Source: Candidatus Micrarchaeia archaeon
GTDB lineage: Archaea > Micrarchaeota > Micrarchaeia > CAILAH01
Direction: 5' to 3'
Assembly: GCA_038874595.1 (NCBI GenBank)
Contig: JAVZCB010000001.1
Coordinates: forward strand, 64,001-128,000
DNA: 64,000 nucleotides
How positions within the stretch are numbered: position 1 is the stretch's first letter; the number at the start of each line of letters is the position of its first letter. Both the position numbers and the translations under genes were made by a program. The notes under the pieces were generated by a model. The model ran no database searches. It saw nothing but the letters and a program-made list of their open reading frames with translations, and was not told the origin of the DNA. Shown piece by piece: positions 29,393 through 62,085 of the stretch.

Positions 29393-29556
29393 GGGCCCGT
29401 AGCTCAGCCTGGATAGAGCGGCAGCCTTCTAGTCCTTTTTCTTTCTTGCAGGCAAGAAAGAAAACCGGCACTAAAAGAAAGAAATGGAGGCGTGTCCAGT
29501 AATGCGCTTCAGGATAAGTAAGCTGAGGGTCGTGGGTTCAAATCCCATCGGGCCCG
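29393..29556 (+). tRNA. tRNA-Arg(UCU) with 89-nt intron at 37/38 (29432..29520)
   Basis: GGGCCCG/CGGGCCC acceptor, GCTC/GAGC D stem, CU-UCU-AA loop after splicing, GTGGG-TTCAAAT-CCCAT T arm; relaxed BHB. Confidence 0.93.
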
Positions 29557-48726: not shown

Positions 48727-51324
48727 CTAATAGCTATTCTCAAACTCCTTATAATGCTGGAAGAACCACTGCTTTACTATTTCTGTTGTGATGCAGTACA
48801 GGAACACGATCCCGAACACGATTGCAATATCAAGCGCGGATGGAACTGCAAAATTGAAATATTGGCCCACCGCGGGAAGTGAGACCACCGCAACCGCAGC
48901 GGCTGTGATAAACAGCGAAGATGTGATTAGCAGCCTGCTTGGTATGCTTGCAAAGAACGGCCCGCGCGTTCTCACTATGAATGTTATGAATATCTCGGAT
49001 AGCAGCGATTCAAGGAACCAGAGCGTTCGCAGCAGTGCCGCCCCTACGCCTAACACGTAATAGAATACTAATATGGTGAGCAGGTCAAACAGTGAGCTTA
49101 ACACACCGAAGAATACCATGAAATGCGAGATCATCTTGACATTCCATTTCTTAGGTGTCTTGATAGATTTCTCATCCACGTTATCTGTTGATATTGCGAG
49201 CATTGGGAAATCGCTGAGGAAGTTGTTCAATAATATCTGTACCGGAAGAAGCGGTATAAATGGAAGAAACAGCGGTGATATAATTACAGTGCCCATATTA
49301 CCGTAATTTGCGCTTATTGTGTTGAGTATATATTTTGTAATATTAGCGAACGTTTTCCTGCCCTCACGCACACCATCTGCGATTACCCTGAGGCTCTTAT
49401 GTGTCAGGACAACATCCGCTGCCTCTTTTGCAACGTCCTGTGCGGTATTTACTGAAATCCCCACATCAGCAAGCCGGAGAGCTGGTGCATCATTAATACC
49501 ATCACCCATAAACCCGACGATGTGGCCGTTTGCACGGACAGCTTCAAGGATTCTTACTTTTTGTGCAGGTGTAACACGCGCAAACACATTGTATTTCTCA
49601 ACAACCTCGTGTAATTTTTTATCATCTATATTATCAATCTCCTTGCCGGTGATTACGCGTTTTCCCTTAATCTCGAGCTTTACATCCTTACATAATCTCT
49701 TTGTAACATCCGGGTCATCACCGGTTAAAAGCATCAGTGATATGTCCAATTCCTTAAACTGCTTGATTGATTCAATAGCAGTTCTCTTAGGCTCGCTCTT
49801 AAAGAGCATAAACCCTTCCAACGTTAGCTCGCGCTCATCTGCAACAGAGTAATCATTCTTTTGTGGGACGGCTCGTGAAGCCACTGCGAGTACAGAGTAT
49901 CCTTCCTTTGCAAACCCCCGCACAATCTCATTTATCTTTTTCCTAACACTATCAATCTCAGTTTTCTTGCCGTTGATGTTGGCATAAGCACATACAGAGA
50001 GCACAGATTCTGCCTCACCTTTTGTTATAAGCACAATCTCCTGTCGTGATTTTCGCTTGCTTGTTTTCTGTGATATTTTAAACACTTCGCTCATCCGTTT
50101 CCTTTCATAATCGAACGCAATATCATCAATGTTTGCATACCCATCCGGCTTTTGGATATGATGAAGGTTCGCATATCTGATTATTGCAGTATCATATACA
50201 TTTCCAGAAATGTGTTTGCCGTGCGTATGCGCATGACTGCACAGCAACCCATATTTCAGGACACCCCAATCATCATTACCTAACGGTGCAACAGTTTTCT
50301 CAAGCATAAGTTCCGGCTCGGTAAGCGTACCGGTCTTATCCATTAGCAGCACGTCCATGAGCCCAACATCTTCGATTGTGGCGAGCTTTTTAACCACGAC
50401 TTTCTTCTCAGCCATCTTAAGTGCACCTGCAGACAACGTGATGGTAGTGATTGCAGGAAGCATCTCAGGTGCAATGCCAACAGCCACTGCAAGTGCAAAC
50501 AATAAAGATTCAAGGATACCCCTGCCAAGATATGAGTTTACAGCAAACACAAATATTGTCATTATTACAATGACCTGGAGTGTGAACGTACTGAACTTCC
50601 TGATATTAACCTGGAAATCAGATTCAGGTATCTTTGCTGAGTATAGTGTAGCGGTCCTGCCAAAATGCGTAGATTGACCCGTGGCAACCACTATACCTTT
50701 TGCAGTACCGTAAGTTACAGTGGTCCCCATAAGTGCATAATTCTTAAGCTCATATGCTGCCGGCCGTGCAAGCTTAATAGGCGCCGTACTTTTCTCAACC
50801 TCGCGCGACTCACCAGTTATTGCAGATTCATTCGTACGGAAATCTTCACATCTGACCAAACGCATATCCGCAGGCACAACGTTCCCGATCTCAAGCAGGA
50901 CCACATCACCGGGTACAAGGTCCTCCGCATTGATTTCTTCCTGCCGTCCATCACGTATTACAACAGCCTTATTTGAAAGATACCTCTTGAGCTGGCGTAG
51001 CGAGTTTTCTGAACGGTACTCTTGATAGAACCCGAGCAGTGCACTTAACAGCAGTATCGCTATAATCGTGAGCCCCTCTGTTGTATCCCCAATGTATAAA
51101 GCTATGACTGAGGCAAAAATTAGTATGAATATGAAAGCGTTATTAAACTGCGAAAGCAGTATCTCAAGCCATGAACGCCTGTCCCTCTCTGGGATTGAGT
51201 TCCTTCCGTAAACCATTCTCCTGCGTGCAACTTCATGTGCGCTTAGCCCTTTCTCAGGATCAACCTTAAGTGCAGCTGCAACTTGATAGCTTTCCAATCG
51301 CCAATATTCACTATTGTTATTCAC
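48727..51324 (-). CDS. mgtA: Mg2+-transporting P-type ATPase (P3B, MgtA-like)
   Basis: TGES, PEMLP, DKTGTLT, TGD, MGDGINDAPAL, SANYGNM, NNFLSD; GTG start inferred. Confidence 0.88.
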   Translation of the reverse strand: MNNNSEYWRLESYQVAAALKVDPEKGLSAHEVARRRMVYGRNSIPERDRRSWLEILLSQFNNAFIFILIFASVIALYIGDTTEGLTIIAILLLSALLGFYQEYRSENSLRQLKRYLSNKAVVIRDGRQEEINAEDLVPGDVVLLEIGNVVPADMRLVRCEDFRTNESAITGESREVEKSTAPIKLARPAAYELKNYALMGTTVTYGTAKGIVVATGQSTHFGRTATLYSAKIPESDFQVNIRKFSTFTLQVIVIMTIFVFAVNSYLGRGILESLLFALAVAVGIAPEMLPAITTITLSAGALKMAEKKVVVKKLATIEDVGLMDVLLMDKTGTLTEPELMLEKTVAPLGNDDWGVLKYGLLCSHAHTHGKHISGNVYDTAIIRYANLHHIQKPDGYANIDDIAFDYERKRMSEVFKISQKTSKRKSRQEIVLITKGEAESVLSVCAYANINGKKTEIDSVRKKINEIVRGFAKEGYSVLAVASRAVPQKNDYSVADERELTLEGFMLFKSEPKRTAIESIKQFKELDISLMLLTGDDPDVTKRLCKDVKLEIKGKRVITGKEIDNIDDKKLHEVVEKYNVFARVTPAQKVRILEAVRANGHIVGFMGDGINDAPALRLADVGISVNTAQDVAKEAADVVLTHKSLRVIADGVREGRKTFANITKYILNTISANYGNMGTVIISPLFLPFIPLLPVQILLNNFLSDFPMLAISTDNVDEKSIKTPKKWNVKMISHFMVFFGVLSSLFDLLTILVFYYVLGVGAALLRTLWFLESLLSEIFITFIVRTRGPFFASIPSRLLITSSLFITAAAVAVVSLPAVGQYFNFAVPSALDIAIVFGIVFLYCITTEIVKQWFFQHYKEFENSY

Positions 51325-51497
51325 AGGACCACATAAATACTTCTGCCAAATACTTAAAAAGGCATTATGTTGTACATGCACGCGCAGGATGAGGGTGCCT
51401 GGTAGCACGGTGGTAGCAGAATTTTAAATCCGGCAAGTGCGCAACTGGAAACCTTCATACAGAGCGCTTTTATAACTCAGGTTGTAGAATATCTACC

Positions 51498-52481: not shown

Positions 52482-52535
52482 CCTCAGAGAAGCGTACATA
52501 TTATGCTTTTATATGTTGGCTGCCTACTATAAAAT

Positions 52536-52590
52536 GGCGATGAAGCTCGCCGGCACAAAAGCGAACCGCCAAAGTTGGCTGATAGCTTCT
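52536..52590 (+). promoter_or_regulatory. Fluoride (crcB) riboswitch aptamer
   Basis: GGCGATG-AAGCT-CGCC...AACCGCC-aaagtt-GGCTGAT-AGCTTCT: P1 GGCG/CGCC, P2 GCC/GGC, pseudoknot GAAGCT/AGCTTC; TATA-like ttttatat about 25 nt upstream. Confidence 0.85.
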
Positions 52591-52612
52591 GGTTTTACAC
52601 GAAGGTGGTTTT

Positions 52613-52765
52613 ATGGTGTACTTTTGCCCATATTGTAACATGAGTAACGGGCTAACCTCGGTTCTCACTGAGGATGCACAGTCAGGTGAGCTGGTATGCA
52701 AGTACGATTCACAGCACAGGTTCACAGTCGGGCGTGACGGGTTCCTAAAAGTGGTTAACAAGTAG
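52613..52765 (+). CDS. 50-aa Zn-finger microprotein
   Basis: MVYFCPYCNMSNGLTSVLTEDAQSGELVCKYDSQHRFTVGRDGFLKVVNK*; CPxC...C(x4)H; SD aggtgg; not in ORF track. Confidence 0.7.
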   Translation: MVYFCPYCNMSNGLTSVLTEDAQSGELVCKYDSQHRFTVGRDGFLKVVNK

Positions 52766-52818
52766 TTTGTGTATCCTGTCCAGCACAGTAAAATCAATAT
52801 ACAGTCTGGTGGTGCAGT

Positions 52819-54570
52819 TTGGTGATGGACGCTGGAAGATTTGAATCACTTGGTAGTGAGATTCTCAGCGTTATCGATACGCTTAAGCAGTATAGCGGGG
52901 CACCTGAGAAACGGCTTGGCCAGATTGCCGAAAACATCAGGTGTGGCTCGTTTACACTTGCAGTTGCTGGGCAATTCAAGCGTGGCAAGACGACACTCAT
53001 AAACGCGCTTTTAGGTATGGGCTTGTTGCCTACGGGAGTGGTGCCGCTTACATCGATAGTGACCTATGTCCGGTATTCCCCGGAAATTAAGGCGCGTGTG
53101 AAGTTGGCTGGTGGTGAGGAGAAAGCAATTGCTATCGATGAGATAAGCCAATATGTAACAGAGAAGCATAATCCCAAGAATATCAAAGGCGTTCAGGAAG
53201 TTGATGTTTGGGTGCCCTCAGCATTCCTTAGGAATGGTGTGGTGATTGTAGACACACCGGGTATTGGGTCAACGCACGCGCATAACACAGAGGTGACGCG
53301 CCGGTTTCTTCCTGAAGCAGATGCGGTTATATTTGTGCTTTCAGGAGACCCGCCAATAACCGAATCCGAGTGCAGGTTTCTTGAGGAGAGTGCAAAGTAT
53401 GCATCAAAATTCTTTTTTGTGCTGAACAAAATTGATTATTACGAGGAGCACGAGGTTGCAGAACTTGCAGAGTTTAATCGTGGCGTGCTTGCATCCAGGC
53501 TTGGTGTGAGGCAGGATGATGTGCGCTTGTACCCACTGTCAGCAAAACGCTCACTTGGCAGGAAGCTAGCTGGTTTAACTCATGAAAATGACGGACTTAC
53601 AGAGTTTGAGAATGCACTTGCGGAATATATTTCTTCAAACAAGGGCGTGCTCATACTGCAGTCTGCCATGTCAAAGTTGAGATATTTTACGGATGAGCTT
53701 ATAAACCAGCGCCAGATAGAAAGAAGCAGTCTTTCAGCATCAGCGGCACAGTTAGAGGAGCGTGTTAAAAAATTTGATGCTGAGCTGAAACGTATCCTGT
53801 CCAAGAAGGAATACATGGGTGATTTTGTCGCAGTTGAGCAAAAGAAGATAATGTCTATTATTGATGATGATATTAATGAACTGAAACGCGCTGTAACAGC
53901 ATCACTTGAGCAGCAGATAGTTGAGTTTGCTCAATCCCTCAAGACCACTGACAATTATAAGTATGCAGTTGAAGTTGAGGAATATTCCAACGACCATATC
54001 TTGGATGTGCTGGAGCCGTGGCGCACAAAAGAGGAGGAGAAGGTTGCCGGGATTTATGCTGAGAAGATGAATAAATATTCTGGAGAGATAAACGCAATAA
54101 TTGAGGAAGTTGAGAAGACTGCATCTGGCCTGTTTGATGTTAAGATAGAAAGCAGGAAAACAGAGGAGAAGTTTACGCTCGAAAGTGCGTTTTATTTCAA
54201 GCTTGGGAGGATTGAGGAGGGTACCGGGCTGTCAATGCTTGAGATGGTGCTTCCGCACCCATTATTCAGGAAAAAGCTTCTTGCCAACCTGCCTGATTAT
54301 ATACGTGAAGACCTTGACAGAAACTGTGGCAGGGTACGGTATGACTTTTATGAGCGCATACAAAAGAGCTCGCTTGTGTTTATTGAGATGCTTGATGATA
54401 AAGTGGATGCGGCAATTAATGGTATACGCAGTGCTAGTGAGAATGCACTCAAGCTGCGCGCGCAGGGAAACGAGAAGGTACGCGAGCGCATAGCCCAGCT
54501 TGATACAGAGTTAAGCCACCTGCGCAGGTTGCAGGACCGTCTTGCATCAATCAATCCGCACGTAGTGTGA
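52819..54570 (+). CDS. Bacterial-type dynamin-like GTPase
   Basis: G1 GQFKRGKTT, LPTGVVPLT, DTPG, NKID, followed by a long helical stalk. Confidence 0.88.
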   Translation: MVMDAGRFESLGSEILSVIDTLKQYSGAPEKRLGQIAENIRCGSFTLAVAGQFKRGKTTLINALLGMGLLPTGVVPLTSIVTYVRYSPEIKARVKLAGGEEKAIAIDEISQYVTEKHNPKNIKGVQEVDVWVPSAFLRNGVVIVDTPGIGSTHAHNTEVTRRFLPEADAVIFVLSGDPPITESECRFLEESAKYASKFFFVLNKIDYYEEHEVAELAEFNRGVLASRLGVRQDDVRLYPLSAKRSLGRKLAGLTHENDGLTEFENALAEYISSNKGVLILQSAMSKLRYFTDELINQRQIERSSLSASAAQLEERVKKFDAELKRILSKKEYMGDFVAVEQKKIMSIIDDDINELKRAVTASLEQQIVEFAQSLKTTDNYKYAVEVEEYSNDHILDVLEPWRTKEEEKVAGIYAEKMNKYSGEINAIIEEVEKTASGLFDVKIESRKTEEKFTLESAFYFKLGRIEEGTGLSMLEMVLPHPLFRKKLLANLPDYIREDLDRNCGRVRYDFYERIQKSSLVFIEMLDDKVDAAINGIRSASENALKLRAQGNEKVRERIAQLDTELSHLRRLQDRLASINPHVV

Positions 54571-54575
54571 TATGA

Positions 54576-54785
54576 ATGGGTGATGCTTTATTGCCATTAT
54601 TTCCAATCGCAATAATTTTTCTTGTCCTGCTTGGTGTAATGGTATTTTTGCGCACATATATCCATTTTCCAAGGATGGCGTGGCCAGAAAGAGTTATGCT
54701 CGCGTTCAGGAACGCTTTCTATATGGTACTCTTGATAATCATCCTGTGTATCATTTTTCTTATTTTGGTCCCTTACCTGGTTTAG
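54576..54785 (+). CDS. Small two-TM membrane protein
   Basis: Two hydrophobic helices; 5 nt after the dynamin stop. Confidence 0.6.
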   Translation: MGDALLPLFPIAIIFLVLLGVMVFLRTYIHFPRMAWPERVMLAFRNAFYMVLLIIILCIIFLILVPYLV

Positions 54786-55059
54786 GGCATTTCTTATTAT
54801 AACCTAGCGCTTCAAGTATAGCATATACGCGCTTGTTCCTTATTTCATAAAATACTCGCCGCCCCATTCTTTTAGATGATATAACACCAAGCCTCTCAAG
54901 CTTTTTGAGCTGTAATGAAACAGTAGGTTGGGCCTTTTTAACCTGTGGGAATATCTTACATACGCATAGTTTTCCGTTGAGTAGCAGCTCTACTATTCTG
55001 AACCGCGTATCATCGGCAAGTGCCTTAACGAGCTTGATAGCATCTTCTCTTGTGCGCAT
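54760..55059 (-). CDS. arsR: ArsR/SmtB transcriptional regulator
   Basis: KALADDTRFRI, LCVC, QPTVS..L..L. Confidence 0.9.
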   Translation of the reverse strand: MRTREDAIKLVKALADDTRFRIVELLLNGKLCVCKIFPQVKKAQPTVSLQLKKLERLGVISSKRMGRRVFYEIRNKRVYAILEALGYNKKCPKPGKGPK

Positions 55060-55119
55060 ATGACATATTTATGTTTGTAAATATATAAATGTTTGTGTGC
55101 AAATATATACTGTGATATT

Positions 55120-55362
55120 ATGAAAATTCAAGTGCTTGGTGGCGGATGCCCAAAGTGTAAGATGGTTGAGGAAAATGTGCACAAGGCACTCAGCCAGCTA
55201 GGTATCGAGGCTGACATAGTTAAGGTTAAGGATATAAACGAGATTGTTGGGTTTGGGGTGATGTCCACACCAGCTCTTGCGATCAACGGGAAGGTTAAGG
55301 TGGCAGGCAGGATACCTGATGTTAATGAGATTATGAAATGGATTAAAGAGGCAAACGAATAG
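55120..55362 (+). CDS. Small thioredoxin-family redox protein (MTH895-like)
   Basis: GGCPKC, GVMSTPALAING, GRIP. Confidence 0.9.
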   Translation: MKIQVLGGGCPKCKMVEENVHKALSQLGIEADIVKVKDINEIVGFGVMSTPALAINGKVKVAGRIPDVNEIMKWIKEANE

Positions 55363-55410
55363 CCTACCGGTTTCTGGTGGCCAACCTGGTTTGAGTATAA
55401 AGTGGTATTT

Positions 55411-56529
55411 ATGGAGAAAGAAGATTATGTACAGCTTGCAGTAATCGTTGGCGTGTTCCTTCTGTTTTACCTGCTTCCGCCAGATGCGGATTGGCTCAAC
55501 AAATCAGTTCAGAGCGGTTTGGTGTTGCTTAGTGAATACGCAAAACAGCACGTCCTTACCTGCCTTGTCCCAGCACTTTTTATTGCTGGTGCGATTTCCG
55601 TGTTCATAAAAAAAGATAAAATCCTGAAATATCTTGGTGCGGAAGCAAACCTGGCTTTCTCATATCTGATTGCATCTGTTACAGGCGCAATACTTGCAGT
55701 ATGCTCGTGCACAATATTACCATTGTTTGCCGGGATACGGAAGAGAGGCGCCGGGCTGGGCCCCGCAGTTACGTTCTTGTTTGCTGGTCCGGCAATCAAT
55801 ATTGCAGCCATCTTTCTCACATTTTCAGTGCTCGGGGTATGGATTGGCCTTGGGCGTGCGGTCGCATCAATAGTGCTTTCCATAATCATAGGGCTAACGA
55901 TGGCGGTTCTGTTTAAAGAGGAAACAGAGAAGGGGAAACTCTTTATTGAGGAGAACGAGGAGGCAAGGGTTTCTGATAAAGTGCTTTTGCTATTCTTTGG
56001 TTTTTTGGTAGGTATACTGGTTGTGAACGGATTACAAATGGAGCAACTCACAAAATATCTGATTATTGGCCTGTTCACGCTTGCAGTTGTAGTGCTGGTC
56101 TTACTTAAATTCAGGGATAATACTCGTGCCAAATGGCTTAGCGAAACATGGTCATTCTCAAAATCAATACTCCCGATGCTTTTTATAGGGGTATTTATTG
56201 CAGGGTTTATAATGCCTTTAATCCCAGAACAGCTGGTAGTGCAGCTTGTTGGCAAGAACTCCATTGAAGGCAACCTGGTCGCATCTGTGTTTGGTGCAGT
56301 GATGTATTTCTCAACACTTACAGAAATACCTATATTACAGGTGCTTATTGCAAAAGGTATGAATACCGGGCCGGCACTTGCACTACTGCTTGCAGGCCCT
56401 TCTTTGAGCTTGCCAAATATGTTAGTTATAAGGGGAATTCTTGGGACAAGAAAGGCCCTCGCATATATCGTGCTTGTTGTGGTATACTCTACAATTGCAG
56501 GGTATATGTTTGGTGCACTGATGGCTTAA
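55411..56529 (+). CDS. ArsP/DUF318 permease
   Basis: HVLTCLVPALFIAGAI, AVCSCTILPLF, MYFSTLTEIPI, GPALALLLAGPSLSLP. Confidence 0.88.
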   Translation: MEKEDYVQLAVIVGVFLLFYLLPPDADWLNKSVQSGLVLLSEYAKQHVLTCLVPALFIAGAISVFIKKDKILKYLGAEANLAFSYLIASVTGAILAVCSCTILPLFAGIRKRGAGLGPAVTFLFAGPAINIAAIFLTFSVLGVWIGLGRAVASIVLSIIIGLTMAVLFKEETEKGKLFIEENEEARVSDKVLLLFFGFLVGILVVNGLQMEQLTKYLIIGLFTLAVVVLVLLKFRDNTRAKWLSETWSFSKSILPMLFIGVFIAGFIMPLIPEQLVVQLVGKNSIEGNLVASVFGAVMYFSTLTEIPILQVLIAKGMNTGPALALLLAGPSLSLPNMLVIRGILGTRKALAYIVLVVVYSTIAGYMFGALMA

Positions 56530-56595: not shown

Positions 56596-57438
56596 TTATA
56601 TGCCGCCAAGGATGTATGCAACTATGCCTAGCATCAGTGAATATAATGAAATCTTCCTACCAATCTCCTGTTTTTCCCTGCTACCGTAAGATAGATATGC
56701 TGCATAAAAAAGCCCAATAACAGAGCCGAGTGCCGGGATTACGTATGCATAGTTATTTTTTAATGGTGGAACTGCAAAGAAGAGGTAAAGCGCAATCGCA
56801 GATGCTATTATTATAAGAAATACCGATAGGTGCAATGACGCCTGCGTGCCGATGAGCACCGGCAATGTTTTTGAGTGCCTGGCTTTTATGTCACCTTCAA
56901 TATCCTGCACAGTTTTTTGTAGTTCTCTCCCGAGCCCAGATAGGAATGAAGTTGCACATATCATTAATGTGAGCTGTGAAACAGTACCCGCAAGTGCAAC
57001 CTCGGTGAAAATGAACACTATTGCCATTGATGATGCGATGATTACGTTTCCCACGAGTGCAGTATCCTTGAGCTTCCAGTCATATAACACCGAAAGTGCC
57101 GCAAAGGCCACGGCTATAGCAAACGCAGGGATGCCAAGGGGATAAGCGCACGCAATACCCACCAGCAAAAGCAGTATGGCTATCCTTAACGCATCCCCTT
57201 TGCTAATCTCATCCCTTACAATCGGCCTATCTTTCTTGTTTATTTTATCGCTTTCAGCATCAAAGTAATCATTGAGTGCAAACGCACCTGCTGAAATAAG
57301 AAACGGGCACAGGAAAAGCAATGCTAACTGGGCGGGTGTGGCGTTAAGATCCAGAAGAAGGATTGCTACAACCACACCGAGCATGAGCATTATTGAGTGC
57401 TCAATCCTTACCAGTTCAGTAATTGCTTTCAATCGCAT
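56596..57438 (-). CDS. UbiA-family prenyltransferase (DGGGP synthase-like)
   Basis: NDYFDAESDKINKKDRPI, RELQKTVQDIEGD. Confidence 0.88.
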   Translation of the reverse strand: MRLKAITELVRIEHSIMLMLGVVVAILLLDLNATPAQLALLFLCPFLISAGAFALNDYFDAESDKINKKDRPIVRDEISKGDALRIAILLLLVGIACAYPLGIPAFAIAVAFAALSVLYDWKLKDTALVGNVIIASSMAIVFIFTEVALAGTVSQLTLMICATSFLSGLGRELQKTVQDIEGDIKARHSKTLPVLIGTQASLHLSVFLIIIASAIALYLFFAVPPLKNNYAYVIPALGSVIGLFYAAYLSYGSREKQEIGRKISLYSLMLGIVAYILGGI

Positions 57439-59634: not shown

Positions 59635-60816
59635 TCATCTCAAAAGCTGCGGGGCGAACAGCAGCATCAGGCCAAGCACGACCATAATTATCCCTCCGAT
59701 AAGCTTGCAGTATTTCGCGTATTTTTCCCCGACACTGCTGCTTATGGCAAGGCCGGCCAAGCCGAATATTATAAGGTCGTCCATCATAAAGAAAATATCA
59801 TAGAGAAGTATGTATGCGTATCTTTCTACGACGCCGATGGCCTTCAATGCCAAGACCTGCGTAAAGACGGCGGGAATTGCGGACGAGCATACAAATTCGA
59901 CCGAATTGACGACGAATGCAAGCGCCACTATGGATATGAGTATCCCGATGGACAGCGGCTGTGATATGATATGCTGGATTTTGCTCTCGGTTTTACTGTG
60001 GTTTTCCTCGCCCCCGACTTTGCACGCGAGTGCGCCCTTGGTAGTGAGGTACTCCTTCAGGCTCAGCACACCGCCTCCAAGCGCGACAATACCTATCAGG
60101 ATAGTGACCGGTCGCAGATAGCCGATTATGAGAAATGCGTTAAGCCACGCGGTCATAAAGAGGAAGTAGAGCACCCCTGAAGCAAAGAGAAAGCTCCCGA
60201 TTATCAGCCAGAACCTCCTCTTGTCGTCCACGTTCAAAAGTAAGCCTATCAGGTAAACGAGAACCCACATAGCGCAGGGATTGAAGCCATCCACAAGGCC
60301 GAGCGTGATCGCCAGCACTGGAAGAGAGACGGACATCAGGTCGGTGCGGCCTAAAAACGGCAGGTCAAATTCGGTGACTACAGCGGCACTTTCCCCTGCA
60401 GCACAGTTTGGCTGGCAGTACTGAATGGCTGCAATCAGCTCTTCTTTCGAGTGCACCCCGACCAGTGCTTTTTTCCCAACGAATGTTGTCGGAACCCAAA
60501 GGCTGGAGGTGTCCAGCCCGGATTCTGCGGCAAGCCGGTAAAACAGCTCGATTCCCTCCGGTGTCGATGCATCATGGAACAGGAATGAAACATTTTCCAT
60601 TTCTTGCGCAAGCTCGTTTATTATCAGCTTTTGCTCCGCGCAGTGCGGGCAGGTCGGCAGGTAGAATACATGAACCGTGAATTTTTCTTCCTGTAGCGGC
60701 TGTTCCCCAGCTCCGCTGAAGAAAACTGCTAGCCCCAGCACGAGCAGCACTGCCACCAAGTATAAGTTGAATTTTTCTTTCAAAAATTCCTGCATTGACT
60801 CTATAATATTTACCAT
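59635..60816 (-). CDS. Glutaredoxin-domain membrane protein (CcdA/DsbD-like TM region)
   Basis: CPHC, VPT, GLVDGFNPCAMWVL, VEFVCS. Confidence 0.8.
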   Translation of the reverse strand: MVNIIESMQEFLKEKFNLYLVAVLLVLGLAVFFSGAGEQPLQEEKFTVHVFYLPTCPHCAEQKLIINELAQEMENVSFLFHDASTPEGIELFYRLAAESGLDTSSLWVPTTFVGKKALVGVHSKEELIAAIQYCQPNCAAGESAAVVTEFDLPFLGRTDLMSVSLPVLAITLGLVDGFNPCAMWVLVYLIGLLLNVDDKRRFWLIIGSFLFASGVLYFLFMTAWLNAFLIIGYLRPVTILIGIVALGGGVLSLKEYLTTKGALACKVGGEENHSKTESKIQHIISQPLSIGILISIVALAFVVNSVEFVCSSAIPAVFTQVLALKAIGVVERYAYILLYDIFFMMDDLIIFGLAGLAISSSVGEKYAKYCKLIGGIIMVVLGLMLLFAPQLLR

Positions 60817-61047
60817 TTACATCCCCAGTAATTCCTTTATCTTTTTGATATCGTAGCCTATAACAAAGTTTCCGTTTATTTCCGTCACCGGCACGCTTCT
60901 GACTCCTGTTTTTTCAGATACGCGCTTTGCCGCATCAGGATTTTTTGAAATGTCCACTTCTTCGAATTTTATATTGTTCTGCTTAAGGAAATTCTTGACC
61001 AGCACGCAATATGGGCAACCGGGTGCAGTGTATAGAATCACTTCCAT
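60817..61047 (-). CDS. Glutaredoxin (NrdH-like)
   Basis: YTAPGCPYC, SVPV. Confidence 0.9.
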   Translation of the reverse strand: MEVILYTAPGCPYCVLVKNFLKQNNIKFEEVDISKNPDAAKRVSEKTGVRSVPVTEINGNFVIGYDIKKIKELLGM

Positions 61048-61095
61048 TCAATAACCCCCTTTCAATCATTCATGAAAATTCACAGCCTCGTCAGG

Positions 61096-61377
61096 TCATG
61101 GCTGGCGTATGCCGGGCACAGTTTCTGAGTTTTCTCCATATCTTCTGGCAAGAAATGATACCCGCACTTCCAGCATTCGTATCCTCCCGACAGCCATTTG
61201 GCTACCAGGTGGATAAGATGCGACAGCAAGTACTTTATTAGTGCAAGTTTTCGAACAGAAGTGGGCTGATTTTTTCTTTATTCTGATGTATACGAATTCA
61301 GCCCCGAGCCAGTTCCACACTGGCTGCATTTTTTTCTCTTTTTTGTATTTCTTAAAGCAGTTGGTGCATTTTCCCAT
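61096..61377 (-). CDS. Small Cys-containing hypothetical protein (TRASH/YHS-like)
   Basis: MGKCTNC...HFCSKTC; 3' end may be degenerate. Confidence 0.4.
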   Translation of the reverse strand: MGKCTNCFKKYKKEKKMQPVWNWLGAEFVYIRIKKKSAHFCSKTCTNKVLAVASYPPGSQMAVGRIRMLEVRVSFLARRYGENSETVPGIRQP

Positions 61378-61409
61378 ATTTGGTACGCCCCCAAAAACTA
61401 TGGATGTGA

Positions 61410-61772
61410 CTATTTCCCTCCGCAACAGCCTGCCGGCTTTTCTGCGGCCCCTTTCAATTTCTTTTCCAGCTCCTCTTTTGCCTGTGCAATAACTTTGTTC
61501 TCAACGATTATCTTCTGTAGCTCTGCCTTGTCAGGAAAACTTATCGCGTTGAAAAGACAGGTGTTCGAGCAGGTCACGCAGCCCACAAGGCAGTTGTTCG
61601 GTCTTGCAACAACAGGTTTGTTGCTTTTCAGGTCCCAGTCGTACACATTCCTGCCGCATCCTGTTATGCACATCCCGCAGCCAACGCATTTGCTTTTGTC
61701 AACCGTGGGATTCCATTTTATCCTATCCCTTGGAATCCCATGCCATTCTGAAAACTTTTTGTCATCTGCCAT
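61410..61772 (-). CDS. 4Fe-4S dicluster ferredoxin with C-terminal CC
   Basis: CVGCGMCITGC, CLVGCVTCSNTC; ends GCCGGK. Confidence 0.88.
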   Translation of the reverse strand: MADDKKFSEWHGIPRDRIKWNPTVDKSKCVGCGMCITGCGRNVYDWDLKSNKPVVARPNNCLVGCVTCSNTCLFNAISFPDKAELQKIIVENKVIAQAKEELEKKLKGAAEKPAGCCGGK

Positions 61773-61782
61773 ATTATTACCT

Positions 61783-62085
61783 CTATTCTGCCATGCAGCA
61801 TTTACTTTTCAAGCAAGTACCCTTTTTGTGTCCCAATGCCTTGAACACATCGCACACGCGATAGTCTTTTATCTGATAAAATACTTTTTGCCCTTCACGA
61901 TGCGACTCTAGAATACCGGCAAGCTCTAGTTTGGAGAGCTGGAACGAAACTGAGGATTGAGTTCGTTTTACTTTAGGAAAAATCTCGCATACACATTTTT
62001 TTCCATCTAGAAGCAGGGCCAATATGTTAAATCTTGTTTCGTCGGCCATTGCTTTCAGAAATCTTACATCATCCTTATGTTTCAT
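61783..62085 (-). CDS. arsR: ArsR/SmtB regulator (paralogue of 54760..55059)
   Basis: KAMADETRFNI, CVCEIFP, C-terminal CC. Confidence 0.9.
   Translation of the reverse strand: MKHKDDVRFLKAMADETRFNILALLLDGKKCVCEIFPKVKRTQSSVSFQLSKLELAGILESHREGQKVFYQIKDYRVCDVFKALGHKKGTCLKSKCCMAE

Follow-up and report, generated by a model that had tools for sequence, protein, structure and literature searches.

Fluoride riboswitches have been described to control several classes of genes, including the exporters crcB/Fluc and CLC-F, a Na+/H+ antiporter, enolase, pyrophosphatase and formate hydrogen lyase (PMC2864571; review PMC11139923). For archaea, only a single natural case has been tested (PMC8241225), and a fluoride riboswitch of Thermococcus kodakarensis is placed at TK0513-TK0514 (PMC4247193; Speed et al. 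2018 as cited in PMC8241225). Bacterial dynamin-like proteins form another group of related systems. The known cases, BDLP, IniA, Campylobacter DLP1/2 and B. subtilis DynA, are linked to stress; DynA acts in membrane surveillance (PMC8844932), and IniA is a drug-induced fission protein (PMC6715688). We describe here a locus in which both themes meet, located in a window of 64,000 nucleotides (the whole stretch of DNA that was analysed) from a Candidatus Micrarchaeia archaeon. Its aptamer is of the same class as in the known fluoride regulons, and in relatives of the unit, antiporter, USP, MFS, enolase and crcB genes are found in the same operons. The difference is that the unit holds no exporter and that the products of the genes under predicted control are a GTPase of the dynamin-like type and two small proteins without a family name (Table 1). 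The T. kodakarensis system resembles the one described here in that both are archaeal, have the aptamer at the 5' end of the transcript and a non-exporter gene first, and are presumed to use translational control. However, T. kodakarensis has crcB next door, while the host described here has a reduced DPANN genome in whose assembly crcB was not found, and the genes are different ones.

Table 1. Features of the riboswitch-GTPase unit in window coordinates.
Feature	Position	Strand	Basis or detail
TATA box, archaeal promoter, TTTTATAT	52507-52514	+	Read from sequence
Fluoride riboswitch aptamer (crcB motif, RF01734)	52527-52598	+	Rfam; core 52536-52589 with P1, short extra hairpin, P3 and pseudoknot
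P1	GGCG 52536-39 / CGCC 52548-51	+	Read from sequence
Pseudoknot, 6 perfect pairs	GAAGCT 52542-47 / AGCTTC 52584-89	+	Read from sequence
Conserved AACCGC	52564-69	+	Read from sequence
P3	GCCAA 52568-72 / TTGGC 52575-79	+	Read from sequence
Conserved GCTGAT	52578-83	+	Read from sequence
Short expression platform with Shine-Dalgarno AGGTGG (52603-08)	52590-52612	+	Candidate translational ON switch
50-aa Cys3His zinc-finger microprotein (C5, C8, C29, H35), first gene behind the riboswitch	52613-52765	+	ORF, homologues
BDLP/IniA-like dynamin GTPase, 581-583 aa	52819-54570	+	ORF of 583 aa from TTG; likely start ATG 52825
69-aa 2-TM protein, two hydrophobic helices, TYxHFPxM loop	54576-54785	+	ORF, hydropathy, homologues

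The original prediction, made from the letters of the DNA, had named a well-formed crcB aptamer right behind a TATA-like box, and every element that it listed is found in its place. The Rfam search that had been proposed with it matches the Fluoride family RF01734 at 52527-52598 (+) with 41.2 bits (E 5.5e-08), above the gathering score of 34 bits, and the conserved GAUG, AAC and GCUGAU elements of that family are present together with P1, P3 and the pseudoknot. Searched with a strict aptamer descriptor, the 918-kb genome gives this site as its one match, and shuffled loci totalling about 6 Mb give none. Taking 25 homologous copies together, pairing holds in 98% of the pseudoknot cells and both sides have changed in four of the six pairs; this covariation exceeds all 500 shuffles and all slid controls, a control that is inflated by kinship among the sequences. 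Judged by sequence, this is a genuine fluoride riboswitch aptamer. It lies in a 5' leader position, with the TATA box 22-29 nt upstream of its first G, an archaeal promoter spacing. A recurring A/T peak at -30 to -23 is seen in 18 archaeal homologous leaders, and since the TATA box of the window matches this peak, transcription probably starts at the 5' end of the aptamer, with a predicted start site around 52534-52536. The unit would thus probably have its own promoter, separate from that of the yhaM-like gene upstream. A sigma-70 promoter scan was set aside as unsuited to an archaeal host.

The association of this riboswitch with the GTPase recurs far beyond the genome described here. Among the 80 best relatives of the GTPase in a GTDB scan, kin included, so that the fraction holds for this sample only, 69 have a riboswitch: a same-strand match lies within 300 nt upstream in 58 and within 3.2 kb, at operon distance, in 11 more (elsewhere in 2, none in 9). 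The riboswitch model used for these relatives was built from Rfam-type matches, and Rfam itself confirms the riboswitch in 17 of 20 loci picked by size. No riboswitch was found in 20 control regions around other dynamin-like genes of the same genomes (0/20). The riboswitch-GTPase loci span about ten phyla (Thermodesulfobacteriota, Nitrospirota, Acidobacteriota, Actinomycetota, Bacteroidota, Planctomycetota, Aquificota, Bacillota, Campylobacterota and archaea), and the GTPase genes of Methanocella conradii and Hippea alviniae follow directly behind the riboswitch. In Micrarchaeota, the GTPases form a clade of eight members with 100% support, and a riboswitch lies upstream in all eight loci; the tree resolved no donor lineage for this clade. 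Gene order is reshuffled in several loci with the riboswitch still in front (L011, L013, L022, L062, L217, L234), and the three-part order of the unit recurs in L062. The neighbours are well-known fluoride genes, in 79 loci the Na+/H+ antiporter family (21), USP (12), MFS (10), CrcB (7) and enolase (4). The idea that the whole GTPase subfamily is riboswitch-controlled was rejected, because a 99%-supported sub-clade of seven close relatives has no riboswitch, which indicates that the GTPase can serve without fluoride control; the riboswitch is absent from two Binatia copies as well. By its recurrence in sequence, the link between the riboswitch and the three genes is conserved and not a local chance. 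Hence, the regulatory half of the original prediction, a genuine riboswitch linked to all three genes, finds good support. The dynamin link had been seen correctly at this locus, but its widespread occurrence in bacteria had been missed.

The GTPase itself had been announced as a dynamin-like protein of 583 aa, which holds for its identity (Dynamin_N, PF00350, E 2.5e-30, 106 bits against a cut-off of 27) but probably not for its length, as the database gene call starts at the ATG at 52825 and gives 581 aa. The G1-G4 motifs are intact, with GQFKRGKT, T78, DTPG and NKID conserved. Among solved structures, its closest counterparts by profile and by fold come from Nostoc BDLP, Campylobacter DLP and IniA of mycobacteria; the profile search reaches E 2.2e-50 against Nostoc BDLP (2J68), and Foldseek with the structure model gives E 1e-21 to 1e-23 for BDLP and IniA (BDLP E 3.9e-23). 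The model has a helical neck and trunk with long helices at 260-439 and 480-582. There is no transmembrane helix, and the tip near residues 468-483 is mildly to moderately hydrophobic by hydropathy; an invariant L478-P479 lies inside this stretch, and the model is poor at 447-460. In NCBIfam the protein stays below every named-family cut-off, including those of LeoA, CrfC and DynA/B (NF041922 29.5 vs 325; NF007368 26 vs 1146; NF052648 68.8 vs 1600). The GTDB scan with the single GTPase sequence gave no match, and a scan with the GTPase alignment recovered the relatives, of which the closest are labelled Bilamarchaeaceae or Micrarchaeota, so that a Micrarchaeon of the DPANN group is the most likely host. 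By sequence and predicted fold, the protein is a BDLP/IniA-like dynamin. With BDLP (2J68), IniA (6J72), Campylobacter DLP1/2 (5OWV) and B. subtilis DynA it shares the G1-G4 motifs and the neck and trunk helices. It differs from them by an identity of only 15-20% and an archaeal host, and riboswitch control, predicted here, is unreported for these proteins in the literature searched. A further difference is that it is a single gene, while bacterial dynamin-like proteins are mostly paired (PMC6104087).

How the riboswitch would act on the unit can be judged from the geometry of its leader. The end of the pseudoknot lies 23 nt before the ATG of the 50-aa ORF, a distance of 16-27 nt across 20 archaeal leaders, and no terminator was called in between. 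Low-energy folds of the leader pair aptamer strands with the Shine-Dalgarno sequence, whose unpaired probability is 0.27 with a free leader and 0.72 with the aptamer locked, a rise that is partly built into the constraint. Occlusion of the Shine-Dalgarno sequence is not significant against shuffled aptamers, of which 14% reach it here, and the mean percentile over 23 leaders is 0.36. Translational ON control is the likeliest reading, from the geometry and from the Thermococcus precedent (PMC8241225). As is typical for this riboswitch class, Mg2+-bound fluoride would stabilise the pseudoknot and thereby turn expression on. In the form that we slightly favour, aptamer strands would mask the Shine-Dalgarno sequence of the 50-aa ORF as long as fluoride is absent, and fluoride would set it free. 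Induction of the unit by fluoride is strongly implied; it is very likely for the first gene and, at a lower level of confidence, likely for the GTPase. The GTPase and the 69-aa gene probably share an mRNA with the first ORF and would follow its control through polarity or mRNA stability. Between microprotein and GTPase there is a gap of 59 nt with a Shine-Dalgarno sequence of its own, so that an internal promoter for the GTPase is possible.

Fluoride gets into the cell in the form of HF, which makes the cytoplasm more acid and reduces the proton-motive force (PMC11139923). The explanation that we prefer for the locus is a fluoride-inducible stress operon in which the GTPase repairs or reshapes the membrane under fluoride stress, an account that, taken as a whole, we consider evenly poised. 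The membrane step, drawn from the behaviour of the family, has at best the same standing: the GTPase would bind the membrane by its trunk tip, polymerise with GTP and reseal or reshape a membrane that is under stress from HF influx and a lost proton-motive force. For BDLP, lipid binding has been assigned to a paddle at the trunk tip (PMC2862293). The only mildly hydrophobic tip of the GTPase described here counts against a membrane role. The 2-TM protein would act as a local partner of the GTPase, the zinc finger might be a small adaptor, which is a guess, and the cell would use this arm of fluoride response without a recognisable exporter of its own. The same induction could also reflect plain compensation, as for enolase: MgFx or AlFx would trap the GTPase in its transition state, and the cell would make more of a housekeeping dynamin that offers no special protection. 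Enolase and pyrophosphatase are indeed riboswitch-controlled because fluoride inhibits them (PMC11139923), GDP and aluminium fluoride lock dimers of a dynamin-family GTPase (PMC2862293), and enolase co-occurs in GTPase loci. However, the GTPase is rare in its phylum, present in 4 of 401 Micrarchaeota genomes, and a second copy was not found in this genome, which does not fit a housekeeping protein; the other dynamin-like genes of the same genomes also lack the riboswitch. We therefore regard over-expression as an improbable explanation.

That no exporter is recognisable in the window had been part of the original prediction, and the absence extends to the whole assembly: CrcB and CLC (PF02537, PF00654) were not found in the unit or anywhere in the 918-kb, 93.5% complete assembly. 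The antiporter type that is linked to the riboswitch elsewhere was not found in this genome either. CrcB is present in 5 of the 401 Micrarchaeota searched, and other fluoride riboswitches of the phylum precede antiporters, MFS genes, crcB, the prenyltransferase-fold gene or the microprotein. This scarcity of exporters would suit a role in fluoride disposal, in which the GTPase sheds vesicles with Mg- or Ca-fluoride, or organises a co-regulated antiporter, MFS protein or channel, and may replace Fluc in DPANN cells that have no exporter. Mycobacterial dynamins mediate vesicle release (PMC10240201), and transporters often share the unit in relatives. Yet the unit described here has no transporter, the bacterial GTPase gene often lies beside crcB and thus does not replace it, and the absence of exporters rests on an assembly that is 93.5% complete. 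Disposal seems to us an unlikely function, and we keep to the membrane-directed stress operon.

The genome carries a second, degenerate fluoride aptamer on another contig (C3, 149247-149311; = L218:3248-3312, -) with 21.3 Rfam bits, in which one base of a pseudoknot strand is missing and behind which no gene is evident. A genome of the same genus (G002) has an intact aptamer at the matching site, likewise without a clear gene. The unit itself is surrounded by an ion and metal stress island (48727-51408, 54760-56529, 56596-57438 and 59635-62085 of the window) with genes for an MgtA-type Mg2+ ATPase, ArsR, a thioredoxin-like protein, an ArsP permease, UbiA and a second ArsR. Parts of the island are seen elsewhere: L011 has ArsP/ArsR on the flanks of the unit, L062 has UbiA and an MgtA of 71% identity, and L234 contains a related redox membrane protein of 393-411 aa. 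At 29393-29556 of the window lies a tRNA whose anticodon loop is interrupted by an intron of about 90 nt (Rfam 46.4 bits).

The unannotated 50-aa ORF behind the riboswitch proved to be a real conserved gene: C5, C8, C29 and H35 are invariant in 76 homologues, substitutions fall mostly at third codon positions, and the structure model reaches pLDDT 89. A homologue search from the single sequence recovered only itself, and the family was found by profiles, with matches in 71 of 401 Micrarchaeota. No Pfam family scored above cut-off, and fold searches and the Atlas gave no clear family. The protein belongs to an unnamed Cys3His family of Micrarchaeota. It shows a weak likeness to Trm112/YcaR-like zinc ribbons and the N-terminal zinc ribbon of RlmA (2HF1, TM-score 0.56 at E 3.1; 2JNY, Z 3.2; sub-threshold Pfam E 0.025-0.09 for zinc ribbons in homologues), all below significance and a lead only. 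In contrast to these ribbons, the microprotein is a free-standing protein; its ligands are a Cys3His set, and the CxxC is followed by a short helix. At the best seven microprotein loci in other genomes the riboswitch lies directly upstream in all seven, six times above the Rfam cut-off and once, in a copy with long inserts, below it; the same arrangement is seen in L022, L026, L233 and L234. In 22 weaker loci no riboswitch was found (0/22), which argues for a fluoride-controlled subgroup inside a larger family. Since the microprotein precedes an antiporter in L025 and L028, and since L003 and L007 showed no further gene in the same orientation downstream of riboswitch and microprotein, it is not merely a leader peptide for the GTPase. 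The gene had been noticed before, but not that it is the first target of the riboswitch and that in some genomes no co-oriented gene was found after it. Riboswitch-less paralogues of the microprotein in one Micrarchaeota family (L042:1434-1482 (+), L044, L045, L046, L052-L056) have another conserved leader. Its nine copies contain a TATA box, GACCAG near the start site and a GCCG...CGGC hairpin that abuts a GGAG Shine-Dalgarno sequence; they have no Rfam match, and the leader is a candidate small cis-regulatory RNA. In L035 (1375-1790, -) two fluoride aptamers flank the microprotein gene, both below the Rfam cut-off; an insert of 50-60 nt interrupts a different loop in each of them.

The small 2-TM protein is a real conserved gene as well, with two hydrophobic helices as had been proposed. 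It has 60 homologues, the named ones from Micrarchaeota and Woesearchaeota, in which the TYxHFPxM loop is invariant. Searches of Pfam and NCBIfam gave no match; DUF4059, recognised at a low level only, was rejected, and a fold search gave no clear family. The gene lies within the fetched loci of six of the eight Micrarchaeota GTPase-clade members, once on the other strand. It adjoins the GTPase in L011, L015 and L221, follows directly behind riboswitch and microprotein in L234 and is divergent from the riboswitch in L017, and two genomes have it without riboswitch and without microprotein. It was not found in bacterial GTPase loci searched with the sequence from the window and is therefore not obligatory; we assign it to an unnamed DPANN family that is a member of the module in archaea. 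The gene set named originally, riboswitch, microprotein, GTPase and 2-TM gene, is correct for the locus but lacks a fourth gene that most relatives carry: in the usual Micrarchaeota order a prenyltransferase-fold gene (PF00432), which may correspond to COG1689, stands between microprotein and GTPase. This gene is missing in the unit and was not found elsewhere in the genome, so that the unit may be reduced. It is also missing in L062, whose GTPase sits apart from that of the window in the tree. A recognisable remnant of it in the 59-nt gap was looked for and rejected. The prenyltransferase-fold gene, located for instance at L011:4127-5011 and L059:9950-10795, overlaps the GTPase start in most Micrarchaeota loci, and in L004, L013 and L063 it comes itself first after a riboswitch. 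Fluoride units also contain, repeatedly, other unnamed helical proteins of 126-147 aa (L022:6274-6654, L234:3404-3829, L217, L119).

It could also be that, after loss of this gene, the riboswitch controls the zinc-finger microprotein alone, with GTPase and 2-TM gene left as a remnant under separate transcription. The two loci in which nothing further in the same orientation was found behind riboswitch and microprotein would agree with this, as would the 59-nt gap, which has an A/T-rich patch besides its own Shine-Dalgarno sequence, and the decayed second riboswitch, which shows that such units erode. Against it, no terminator was called in the gap, L062 shows the three-part order again, the GTPase has kept all its motifs, and in relatives it stays under the riboswitch through many different gene arrangements; we consider control of the microprotein alone to be doubtful. 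A chance juxtaposition or a non-functional aptamer can practically be dismissed, given that all core elements of the aptamer are present and that the riboswitch is found in the great majority of the best relatives and in none of the control regions.

Neither the riboswitch class nor the dynamin fold is new, and their pairing may be visible, unremarked, in public annotations. The 2024 review on fluoride, which lists riboswitch-linked genes, does not mention dynamin or GTPase (PMC11139923). Full-text literature searches for dynamin or GTPase with a fluoride riboswitch returned nothing relevant, the gene tables of the founding papers lying outside this search; a mention of dynamin is likewise missing from the searchable supplements of Weinberg 2010, and the term 'archaeal dynamin' is absent from the full-text literature searched. 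The original prediction had named prior documentation of the link as a point that would speak against it, and no such description was found in the literature searched. The data thus point to a branch of the fluoride response without a description in that literature. To our knowledge, most prokaryotic dynamin-like proteins are of unknown function. If the account holds, an archaeal dynamin would have a defined inducing signal, of which we found no example in the literature searched. A wider reading, tentative and in our view rather unlikely, is that this widespread dynamin subfamily would be a dedicated, exporter-independent membrane arm of fluoride defence and, together with both new small proteins, the main inducible answer of reduced DPANN cells, which are mostly without Fluc. 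The locus raises the question of how fluoride is tolerated by cells that have neither Fluc nor CLC-F, places two unnamed families of small proteins in the fluoride regulon and yields a set of compact archaeal riboswitch leaders. Because the riboswitch names the inducing signal, it offers a direct test for a dynamin subfamily, and with Methanocella conradii and Hippea alviniae there are cultured carriers of the riboswitch-GTPase pair.
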